Positions 312 to 1,106 of a stretch of 64,000 nt of DNA are shown here, piece after piece. The translations under genes were made by a program, and so were the position numbers. This DNA is from a virus (Duplodnaviria; Caudoviricetes). The notes below the pieces were generated by a model. It ran no database searches. It saw nothing but the letters and a program-made list of their open reading frames with translations, and had not been told where the DNA came from. Within the stretch, counting starts at the first letter, position 1, and the number at the start of each line of letters is the position of its first letter. Location: the IMG/VR virus record IMGVR_UViG_3300025437_000009; one strand, given 5' to 3'.

Positions 312-395
312 TGGTGGAGCATCCTGGGATCGAACCAGGCATGTCAAAGACGGCGGATTTACAGTCCACTGCATCACCGTTGATGCTTCTGCTCC
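312..395 (-). tRNA. trnY: tRNA-Tyr(GTA)
   Basis: GGAGCAG/ATGCTCC acceptor; loop CTGTAAA; long variable arm as expected for bacterial Tyr; encoded CCA; 84 nt. Confidence 0.93.
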
Positions 396-407
396 TGTGT
401 ATTGTAA

Positions 408-436
408 AGTATACTAGTATATATGCCCCGTGTCAA
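408..436 (-). promoter_or_regulatory. sigma70-type promoter for the Tyr-Gly-Trp-Gly tRNA array
   Basis: TTGACA-CGGGGCATATATACTAG(17)-TATACT, 12 nt upstream of tRNA-Tyr. Confidence 0.8.
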
Positions 437-693
437 GTGGGGTGGTAACCCGAATGGACGTTTACCCGCTCGTCATCTAGTATACTTTAGAATACCCTCT
501 CTTTCGAAAGGATATGCTAGGGCTATACCCCAGCCTGTAATTTTTTACACCACACAAGGTGCTCCATCCCACAGTCCGCCCATTTAGCTGTTTATAGTGT
601 AGCAAGGATCTCGTTCCCTATACCACTTTACTGCCGATCAAAGATAGTCTGGCCAAAAAACGTACCAGTCATCTTCATAACCTCAATCCACTT
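435..693 (-). ncRNA. candidate structured non-coding RNA (~260 nt), family not recognised
   Basis: No long ORF. Terminal AAGUGG(688-693)/CCACUU(435-440) helix. Internal hairpins GUGGUAUAGGGA/UCCUUGCUACAC, GCUGGG/CCUAGC, AUAUCCUUUC-GAAA-GAGAGGGUAU, GACG/CGUC, CUGG/CCAG. Confidence 0.55.
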
Positions 694-694
694 A

Positions 695-865
695 TCAGCG
701 TGAGGAGTATTTCGACCCCCTTGCAGACTCCTGTAACTTCGCGGCTTCTGCTAATGCTTTGACTTGAGCTTCTGCTCTTGCTACCTTTGCTTCCATTAGT
801 GCAACTTTTTCTTCGTGTGAGAGGACAAAGTGTGATACGTTTCGTTTTTCGTTCTTATGTTCCAT
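695..865 (-). CDS. small hypothetical protein, 56 aa (not in ORF track): MEHKNEKRNVSHFVLSHEEKVALMEAKVARAEAQVKALAEAAKLQESARGSKYSSR
   Basis: Translated by hand; strong RBS GGAGAAGGAAA before ATG; Ala/Glu/Lys-rich helical core; TGA stop. Confidence 0.7.
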   Translation of the reverse strand: MEHKNEKRNVSHFVLSHEEKVALMEAKVARAEAQVKALAEAAKLQESARGSKYSSR

Positions 866-1077: not shown

Positions 1078-1106
1078 ATTATAGTTTATTTATCTTTTTA
1101 TGTCAA
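1078..1106 (-). promoter_or_regulatory. perfect-consensus sigma70 promoter with a TAAATA late element nested in the spacer
   Basis: TTGACA-TAAAAAGATAAATAAAC(17)-TATAAT; TAAATA at 1087-1092. Confidence 0.85.

Follow-up and report, generated by a model that had tools for sequence, protein, structure and literature searches.

The stretch of DNA analyzed here (referred to as the window) comprises 64,000 nucleotides (nt) from IMG/VR virus record IMGVR_UViG_3300025437_000009 (Duplodnaviria; Caudoviricetes). Its minus strand carries, ahead of a set of tRNA genes, a structured RNA (629 to 400) that represents a new, widespread, and strand-specific RNA family, which is absent from Rfam and is found at at least 120 loci of uncultivated phages. 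A sequence-only reading of the window had flagged positions 693 to 435 as an unrecognized structured noncoding RNA adjoining phage tRNA genes. This core claim holds and is much strengthened, as no Rfam family matches and most helices covary; the boundaries of the RNA are redrawn below. The family appears to be an array leader that is transcribed with the tRNAs and is commonly paired with a small-protein gene. Current views hold that phage tRNA arrays serve codon supply and counteract host anticodon nucleases. To our knowledge, the transcription and processing of these arrays are almost unstudied, and no published regulatory RNA for them was found.

All relevant features lie on the minus strand of the window in the order promoter (1106-1078), open reading frame (ORF) of 56 amino acids (aa; 865 to 695), flagged stretch (693 to 435), and tRNA genes. 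The redefined RNA consists of the following parts.

400-629, minus strand: the structured leader RNA, composed of a core (629-492) and a stem cassette, H6 (494-400)
596-627, minus strand: H1, stem 1 of the pseudoknot, AGUG (627-624) with CACU (599-596), enclosing H2 and the 5′ arm of H3
605-619, minus strand: H2, a hairpin of AGGG (619-616) with UCCU (608-605) and the 7-nt loop AACGAGA (615-609)
587-603, minus strand: H3, stem 2 of the pseudoknot, GCU (603-601) with AGC (589-587), only 3 bp in the window
576-586, minus strand: a single-stranded linker, UAAAU-GGGCGG, conserved as AAYGGGCGG in the family
535-574, minus strand: H4, 574-570 with 539-535, enclosing an internal loop and H5
563-569 and 540-546, minus strand: the H4/H5 internal loop, GGAUGGA (569-563) opposite AAAAAAU (546-540), in the family GGAUGRA/AAAAAU
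547-562, minus strand: H5, a hairpin of 562-558 with 551-547 and the loop UUGUGU
516-534, minus strand: H7, the hairpin GCUGGGG-UAU-AGCCCUAGC, an optional module of "type B" members
492-515, minus strand: H8, the hairpin AUAUCCUUUC-GAAA-GAGAGGGUAU, an optional module
400-494, minus strand: H6, a long stem of UAUUCUAAAGUAUACUAG (494-477) with CUAGUAUACUUUACAAUA (417-400) and one C-C mismatch

H1 encloses the 5′ arm of H3, whose 3′ arm lies beyond it; thus, H1 and H3 form an H-type pseudoknot. Between the arms of H3 lie the 3′ arm of H1 and an A-rich loop (AUAAAC, 595-590), and in the family the 3′ arm of H3 comes after this loop (CUAUAAACA). The family consensus of H1 is AAGUG/CACUU and that of the H2 loop is AACGAGR, with G616:U608 closing the loop in the window. 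H5 occurs in two classes, with the loop UYUUGU or GCGRUAA, and the stretch 3′ of it varies between subtypes. H7 and H8, present in some members including the window, are the two hairpins that the sequence-only reading had quoted (GCUGGGG/CCCUAGC at 534-516 and AUAUCCUUUC-GAAA-GAGAGGGUAU at 515-492). A further quoted hairpin, GUGGUAUAGGGA/UCCUUGCUACAC, corresponds to two helices of the pseudoknot, H1 and H2.

Read from 629 to 400, the RNA has a minimum free energy (MFE) of −75.2 kcal/mol (z = −3.59), which none of 200 shuffles equals; the opposite (plus) strand of 400-629 folds with z = −1.31. The MFE structure matches the comparative model except for H3, because pseudoknots cannot be drawn by such folding. 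For the flagged stretch 693-435, comparison with shuffles gives z = −3.0 on the minus strand versus −1.6 on the plus strand. The stretch is also richer in GC (0.45-0.47) than its upstream flank (0.30-0.39), as had been observed.

The family was reached through the 56-aa protein. Contigs with an identical protein gave two variants of the RNA region, both identical to the window up to 634-617 and with many changes beyond, several of them compensatory. In total, 25 metagenome loci were found via the protein, and nearly all have the same RNA core directly downstream; protein identity in these protein-anchored loci is 64-95%, yet the core is shared. The linker AAYGGGCGG (AAGGGGCGG in locus L012) is present in all RNA-carrying protein-anchored loci, which were found without using the motif. 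A loose pattern derived from them (AACGAG, CC, AANGGGCGG, and GGAT with variable gaps) has at least 120 matches in IMG/VR; in these pattern-anchored loci, AAYGGGCGG is forced by the search. A covariance model of 57 positions, R1, matches 99 of 99 non-redundant viral and metagenome loci once each with 30-76 bits. The sole match in the window, at 576-629, scores 57.9 bits. Along with this match, the window has H4/H5 pairs that fit the alignment A8 (see below) and a tRNA-Tyr gene 4 nt after H6, the marks by which it is placed in the new family.

Covariation was scored on A7, an alignment fitted to R1 (99 sequences), and on the ungapped alignments A8 (51 sequences) and A9 (24 sequences). H1 and H2 are 82.9% paired on A7 (score 0.283 versus 0.114 for shuffles), H4 and H5 are 84.0% paired on A8 (0.807 versus 0.249), and H2 and H3 are 95.5% paired on A9 (0.692 versus 0.181); in each case, 0 of 500 shuffles reach the score. 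All 11 H4/H5 pairs change on both sides in A8, and when the partners are slid by 1-3 columns, the score falls to 0.08-0.17. H3 by itself is 93.8% paired on A9, with five of six pairs changing on both sides. The loop-closing pair of H2 is AU in 58 sequences of A7, UA in 16, CG in 12, GU in 7, and GC in 3, and is unpaired in none. Among 22 loci, the optional hairpins show 10 (H7) and 13 (H8) distinct complementary arm pairs, the latter including AUGUCG../..CGGCAU and AUAGCA../..UGCUAU. The covariation that the earlier reading had proposed as a check is thus found in H2, H3, H4, and H5. The four core pairs of H1 are 93-99% paired on A7, and compensatory variants occur (CACG/CGUG, CACA/UGUG, UACU/AGUA, and CAGU/ACUG). 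Its covariation is modest because the helix is mostly invariant; for the same reason, permutation of arms across sequences, which supports H2-H6, is uninformative for H1. An unconstrained search for the H1 5′ arm does no better than shuffles because A/U-rich matches swamp the signal. RNAalifold on plain MAFFT alignments recovers H2 alone, since variable spacers misalign; therefore, length-matched ungapped subsets and a covariance model were used. G-U pairs are frequent, and the RNA is therefore assigned to this strand only.

None of the models in Rfam 15 matches the RNA, including those for GOLLD, ROOL, YrlA/Y RNA, 6S, tmRNA, RNase P, and SRP, as well as T-boxes, riboswitches, self-cleaving ribozymes, and group I/II introns. 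The cmscan comparison proposed in the sequence-only reading gives no match to the flagged stretch even at E ≤ 10. In the 64-kb window, tRNAs alone reach the threshold, and nothing is reported in 400-693 on the minus strand at E ≤ 10. The relatives L003, L005, and L006 likewise match no family. A blastn search of the window region and two other family members against 50,697 INPHARED phage records returns a match to tRNA-Tyr only, and no close relatives were found in IMG/VR via the neighboring PP-loop protein or an exact 24-mer. As a specificity control, the same pattern was applied to 596 Gb of bacterial genomes. It occurs there at about the chance number, and 4 of 120 loci pass R1 (L158, L159, L221, and L260), all on small or mis-binnable contigs in Bacteroidota-type metagenome-assembled genomes (MAGs). 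One of these, L159 (G001:C1:141606-141663), is a strong copy (68 bits) on a 183-kb contig in a Haliscomenobacter MAG bin. Two small contigs in Bacteroidota/Flavobacteriales bins also carry copies. These loci hint weakly at freshwater Bacteroidota as hosts or at mis-binning of phage contigs.

Thousands of unnamed covarying intergenic motifs from IMG/VR, some adjoining tRNAs, have been described (Fremin et al. 2023, PMC10690425), and these candidates share their data source with the RNA here. In the text of that paper, no motif heading tRNA arrays is described; on a comparison with the text only, the RNA may be among its unnamed motifs. The family is ready for Rfam submission and would correct IMG/VR gene calls, which now place spurious ORFs over the RNA.

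The sequence-only reading had described one RNA of ~260 nt, with a terminal helix around the whole and a tRNA promoter as its downstream limit, an architecture that does not hold. The proposed helix, AAGUGG (693-688) with CCACUU (440-435), is present in the single-sequence MFE structure but is not kept by relatives. Its 5′ half coincides with two codons, AAG TGG, in a reading frame that is conserved, and its 3′ half is part of a local hairpin, CCCC-ACUUGACAC-GGGG (442-426). L003 and L005 retain the 5′ half only: from ~543 onward, their sequence is unrelated to that of the window, including the positions where the 3′ half would lie, and the helix is therefore not a conserved feature. Nor does the RNA start right after the ORF stop, as 693-630 is coding and not RNA structure. 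It also does not end at 435: the last stem, H6, spans the supposed promoter, and the RNA reaches to 4 nt before the first tRNA. The features that surround it or overlap with it are as follows.

315-395, minus strand: tRNA-Tyr(GUA), the first gene of the array (Rfam RF00005, 33.9 bits), missed by ARAGORN
408-436, minus strand: a sigma-70-like TTGACA-17-TATACT with 11 of 12 consensus matches, within the H6 insert and 3′ arm
628-693, minus strand: a coding stretch in the +1 frame (...DKWIEVMKMTGTFFGQTIFDRQ*), with a micro-ORF from ATG at 678 to the stop TAA at 630-628
695-865, minus strand: the gene of the 56-aa, predicted helical small protein, an ORF with 49 homologous clusters
1078-1106, minus strand: a consensus promoter upstream

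In the window, tRNA-Tyr (395 to 315) is followed by tRNA-Gly, tRNA-Trp, and tRNA-Gly. The tRNA-Tyr has a long variable arm and is likewise missed by ARAGORN in L007, L009, L014, L018, and L052; therefore, ARAGORN tRNA counts in these phages are too low, and several loci apparently without a near tRNA hide such a gene. Context was counted over IMG/VR loci found by the pattern alone and with enough sequence. In 79 of 95 loci, a tRNA on the same strand starts at most 450 nt after the RNA (median 169). The 3 kb after the RNA hold a median of 10 tRNAs and up to 23, with 1,306 on the strand of the RNA and 0 on the other. A tRNA lies within 1 kb upstream in only 15 of 93 loci, and the single RNA copy of each locus is mostly upstream of all tRNAs seen. 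H6 ends 0-6 nt before a tRNA in L025, L028, L060, L109, L012, L036, and L010. This gap leaves no room for a promoter, which argues that the RNA and the tRNAs form one transcript. In one variant, an ORF of 303-313 aa lies between the RNA and the tRNA array on the opposite strand (L003:1046-1987) and is probably a mobile insertion. Further down the array, an odd 97-nt tRNA-like gene (L001:4258-4354) is called tRNA-Asn by ARAGORN; no complementarity was seen between this gene and the leader RNA.

H6 encloses a variable insert, which in the window contains the CCCC/GGGG hairpin described above. Homologous stems of 12-24 bp lie 3′ of the core in 77 loci; in many, H6 is followed by a hairpin (ACACAYU..ARUGUGU) and then the first tRNA. 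A further 44 H6-like stems occur without the pseudoknot core inside arrays, often 3-14 nt before a tRNA. As H6 recurs along arrays, it is a generic cassette, while the pseudoknot-H4/H5 core is a unique head element. We infer that the repeated H6-type stems are modular processing cassettes. One such stem, UAUUGAAGCAYAYU.../...AGUGUGUUUCAAUA, is located just beyond the window start (L001:3905-3990). In some relatives, H6 encloses an element that resembles a tRNA and includes D-loop-like and T-arm sequences (L003:961-1030 and L005:970-1039, also L019 and L036). The inserts of L003, L005, and L019 score 27 bits against RF00005, for which the threshold is 29, and replace the hairpins of the window.

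The TTGACA-17-TATACT sequence from which the tRNAs had been proposed to be transcribed exists at 436-408. At the −35-like hexamer, L010 has TTGATC and L007 has CTCGAC; L012 keeps TTGACA but has no −10-like hexamer 16-18 nt after it. Thus, this sequence is at most a clade-specific secondary promoter. A resemblance of the H6 3′ arm to boxA was dismissed because the arm covaries with its partner. An alternative pairing of H6 with the pseudoknot loop shows no correlation between sequences.

Three arrangements are found upstream of the RNA. In the first, a TTGACA-17-(−10) promoter ends 8 nt (L033, L150, L042, and L092) or 10 nt (L105) before H1. In the second (L038, L046, L049, L079, L112, L138, and L144), a promoter and a leader ORF precede a terminator that ends 5-25 nt before H1. 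The leader ORF has ~35-40 codons, the terminator is strong, and all elements lie in the 230 nt upstream of the RNA; this arrangement matches leader-peptide attenuators. In the third, a small ORF ends at H1. The link to an attenuator suggested in the sequence-only reading is plausible, as many relatives have a leader ORF and terminator directly before the RNA. Contigs of four freshwater metatranscriptome runs contain mainly the tRNA genes of other organisms (88-95% identity), with a few short contigs from relatives over 521-726 that carry neither ends nor strand and are uninformative on transcription.

The 56-aa ORF reported ahead of the flagged stretch is present at 865 to 695 and stops with TGA. 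AlphaFold2 (AF2) predicts that its product is one long helix (residues 17-53, pLDDT 82.7). The protein has K/R residues but no arginine-rich motif and belongs to no Pfam or PHROG family. In an iterated hidden Markov model search, a member of its family ends at most 90 nt before the AACGAG loop in 84 of 120 loci, with the stop a few to ~15 nt before H1 in 72 of these. The small ORFs at H1 encode proteins of 47-62 aa with the motif LTxEQxxxLIxxKxxRA that belong to the same family as the 56-aa protein, and this family is found nowhere else within 3.5 kb upstream of the RNA. In L021, L022, and L024, a TTGACC-17-TATAAT promoter lies ~100 nt after the small gene and is directly followed by tRNA-Asp.

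The +1 frame relative to the 56-aa ORF is open from 750, overlaps the gene end, and encodes ...LQGGRNTPHADKWIEVMKMTGTFFGQTIFDRQ* (628-750, minus strand); its stop TAA (630-628) abuts H1. The peptide ...DKW(I/L)EVMKxTGTFFGQTI(F/Y)D is conserved among relatives, and changes are mostly third-position or conservative (AAG/AAA, ATT/ATA/CTT, GAG/GAA, GTT/GTC, ACG/ACA, and GGC/GGG). The start-like ATG of the micro-ORF is GTG in one relative. The DNA around the stop of the 56-aa ORF is nearly invariant (TCTGCAAGGGGGTCGAAATAC..CACGCTGATAA; overlap AAGGGGGTCGAAATAC..CACGCTGATAA). This pattern suggests an independent micro-ORF or a programmed +1 shift. Among proteins of at least 71 aa, none fuses the 56-aa protein to the +1-frame peptide, which is weak evidence either way.

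The best explanation as a whole, to which we attach about an even chance, is that the RNA is the pseudoknotted 5′ leader of phage tRNA-array transcripts, which acts in cis with the small protein and is processed. Cleavage by RNase P at the first tRNA, perhaps together with RNase III in H6, would free an RNA of roughly 130-230 nt. The core (i.e., the pseudoknot, the GGGCGG linker, and the H4/H5 internal loop) would act in cis at the operon start. Together with the small protein, it would cause RNA polymerase to read through an array that is long, untranslated, and rich in hairpins, and/or it would organize the processing of the precursor. Processive antitermination or precursor organization is favored, given the parallel to nut, put, EAR, and the rrn leader. 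A more specific proposal, tentative and rather unlikely as it stands, is that the core and the single-helix protein form a ribonucleoprotein (RNP) antitermination/elongation switch dedicated to tRNA arrays, placed directly behind leader-peptide attenuators. If true, uncultivated freshwater phages would sense slow decoding and then commit RNA polymerase to 10-20 tRNA genes, and the switch would be a processive antiterminator of a new class, with no relation to N/nut, Q, put, EAR, or LoaP.

Several observations weigh against a cis-acting leader with a protein partner. In some loci, 0.7-1.9 kb including ORFs separate the RNA from the first ARAGORN tRNA. The RNA occurs without the small protein in ~30% of loci (36 of 120), and in L021, L022, and L024 the small protein and the micro-ORF are kept with the RNA absent within 4 kb; since each occurs alone, the pairing is not obligatory. 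The small protein has neither an arginine-rich motif nor a known RNA-binding family, and the reading of 629-400 shows no boxA-like GCUCUU. The argument for antitermination is one of position and analogy, and the leader transcript and its ends are deduced from sequence. The search pattern itself accounts for part of the invariance of the motifs, although they are also seen, independently of it, in the protein-anchored loci.

The RNA may instead be a stable, trans-acting molecule, comparable to the T4 species 1/2 RNAs or Y-like RNAs, that is simply co-expressed with the tRNAs and excised by RNase P/RNase III. It would then bind some factor of the host or the phage, perhaps serving as a nuclease decoy or forming an RNP with the small protein. 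A compact, highly conserved core with a pseudoknot and many invariant unpaired nucleotides would suit this function, the stable flanking stems would shield the ends, a dedicated small-protein gene adjoins, and the RNA persists where ORFs part it from the tRNAs. However, it is almost always the first array element, a position that mere co-expression does not need, and no target or complementarity was identified; a role in trans is possible but doubtful. We consider it improbable that the core is a riboswitch-like sensor, which would bind a small molecule, uncharged tRNA, or a protein and gate transcription into the tRNA genes. The location in a 5′ leader directly after promoters and the strongly conserved junction nucleotides of the pseudoknot are in keeping with sensing, and the adjoining leader-peptide attenuators indicate that the arrays are regulated. 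Yet no expression platform is recognizable (H6 and the next hairpin have no U-tract), no covarying alternative pairing was found, no known riboswitch or T-box model matches, and the sequence beyond H5 differs between subtypes.

The close spacing of the small ORF and H1 raises the prospect, a slim one, that the RNA is a 3′ untranslated region or operator of the small-protein gene, serving in translation termination, recoding, mRNA stability, or autoregulation, with the link to tRNAs being secondary. In 72 of 84 loci, a few to ~15 nt separate the ORF stop from H1, the +1-frame TAA of the window abuts H1, and the sequence around the 56-aa stop is near-invariant. On the other hand, 36 of 120 loci have the RNA without such an ORF, directly after a promoter or terminator, and the association with tRNAs (83%) is at least as tight as that with the ORF (70%). 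It is hardly credible that the region is not a functional RNA at all but a set of DNA signals (promoters, operators, or recombination sites) or tRNA-gene remnants. The near-consensus promoter within H6 of this phage, the resemblance of H6 arms to −10 boxes, and the tRNA-like H6 inserts (27 bits) could be read in this way. However, compensatory changes preserve pairing in eight helices, the G-U pairs are frequent and strand-specific, the distance between the H6 arms (10-90 nt) is too variable for a DNA-binding dimer, and the tRNA model gives no match in 400-629.

Two other identities were rejected. A tRNA or tRNA-like identity of 400-629 is not supported by any RF00005 or ARAGORN match. A one- or two-piece tmRNA is found by neither ARAGORN nor Rfam, and there is no conserved tag frame; the short frames that open at GGAUG are not shared by relatives, which have frames of other lengths and sequences or none, and every base of the linker AAYGGGCGG is conserved, unlike in a coding sequence.

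The RNA and its partner micro-protein provide a clonable handle on how tRNA arrays are transcribed and processed. If the RNA is an antiterminator, sensor, or decoy, it would be a new RNA class for phage biology. Synthetic tRNA operons could also make use of it as a compact part.

Among known systems, nut (boxA/boxB with N), HK022 putL/putR, rrn boxB-A-C, and Bacillus EAR are, like the RNA here, promoter-proximal structured RNAs that head a long operon. These antitermination leaders are present in one copy per operon, as is this RNA. The rrn operon is likewise an untranslated stable RNA, and lambda nut likewise employs a small dedicated phage protein; Bacillus EAR also has a pseudoknot and conserved loops. 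The likeness is positional only, with no sequence or model similarity, and neither a lambda nut-type boxA (CGCUCUUA / GCUCUUUAACAA) nor a boxB-like pentaloop hairpin is found on reading 629-400. As regards an N-like protein, the small protein that adjoins the RNA in 70% of loci is predicted to be a single long helix, with K/R residues but no arginine-rich motif. The position after the promoter is shared with HK022 put in L033, L150, L042, L092, and L105. However, put is a two-stem, protein-free element, whereas the RNA here has a pseudoknot and H4/H5; the two are set apart by description only.

Leader-peptide attenuators (the trp, his, and thr leaders in Rfam) occupy the same leader region, and a terminator lies directly before the RNA in many loci. 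The attenuator lies apart from the RNA, upstream of it (1106-876 in the window), and the RNA, unlike attenuators, has no terminator/antiterminator alternative or leader peptide. The RNase III stems that flank rRNAs and T7 early mRNAs resemble H6 in being long, near-perfect stems that bracket an RNA module, and the 12-24 bp H6 stems likewise repeat along the array, within what would be a polycistronic stable-RNA precursor. In contrast to RNase III stems, many H6 stems are shorter than two helical turns, and their cleavage is putative. The T4 species 1 and species 2 RNAs (rnaC and rnaD) are small, stable, noncoding RNAs that are co-transcribed with tRNAs and released by tRNA-processing enzymes. 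No blastn similarity to cultured phages that would indicate homology to rnaC/rnaD is found in INPHARED (50,697 records), which presumably includes T4-like phages. The likeness is that both are phage-encoded, noncoding, and located in a tRNA region; unlike rnaC and rnaD, this RNA stands at the head of its array, is built around a pseudoknot core, and is accompanied by a partner protein gene.

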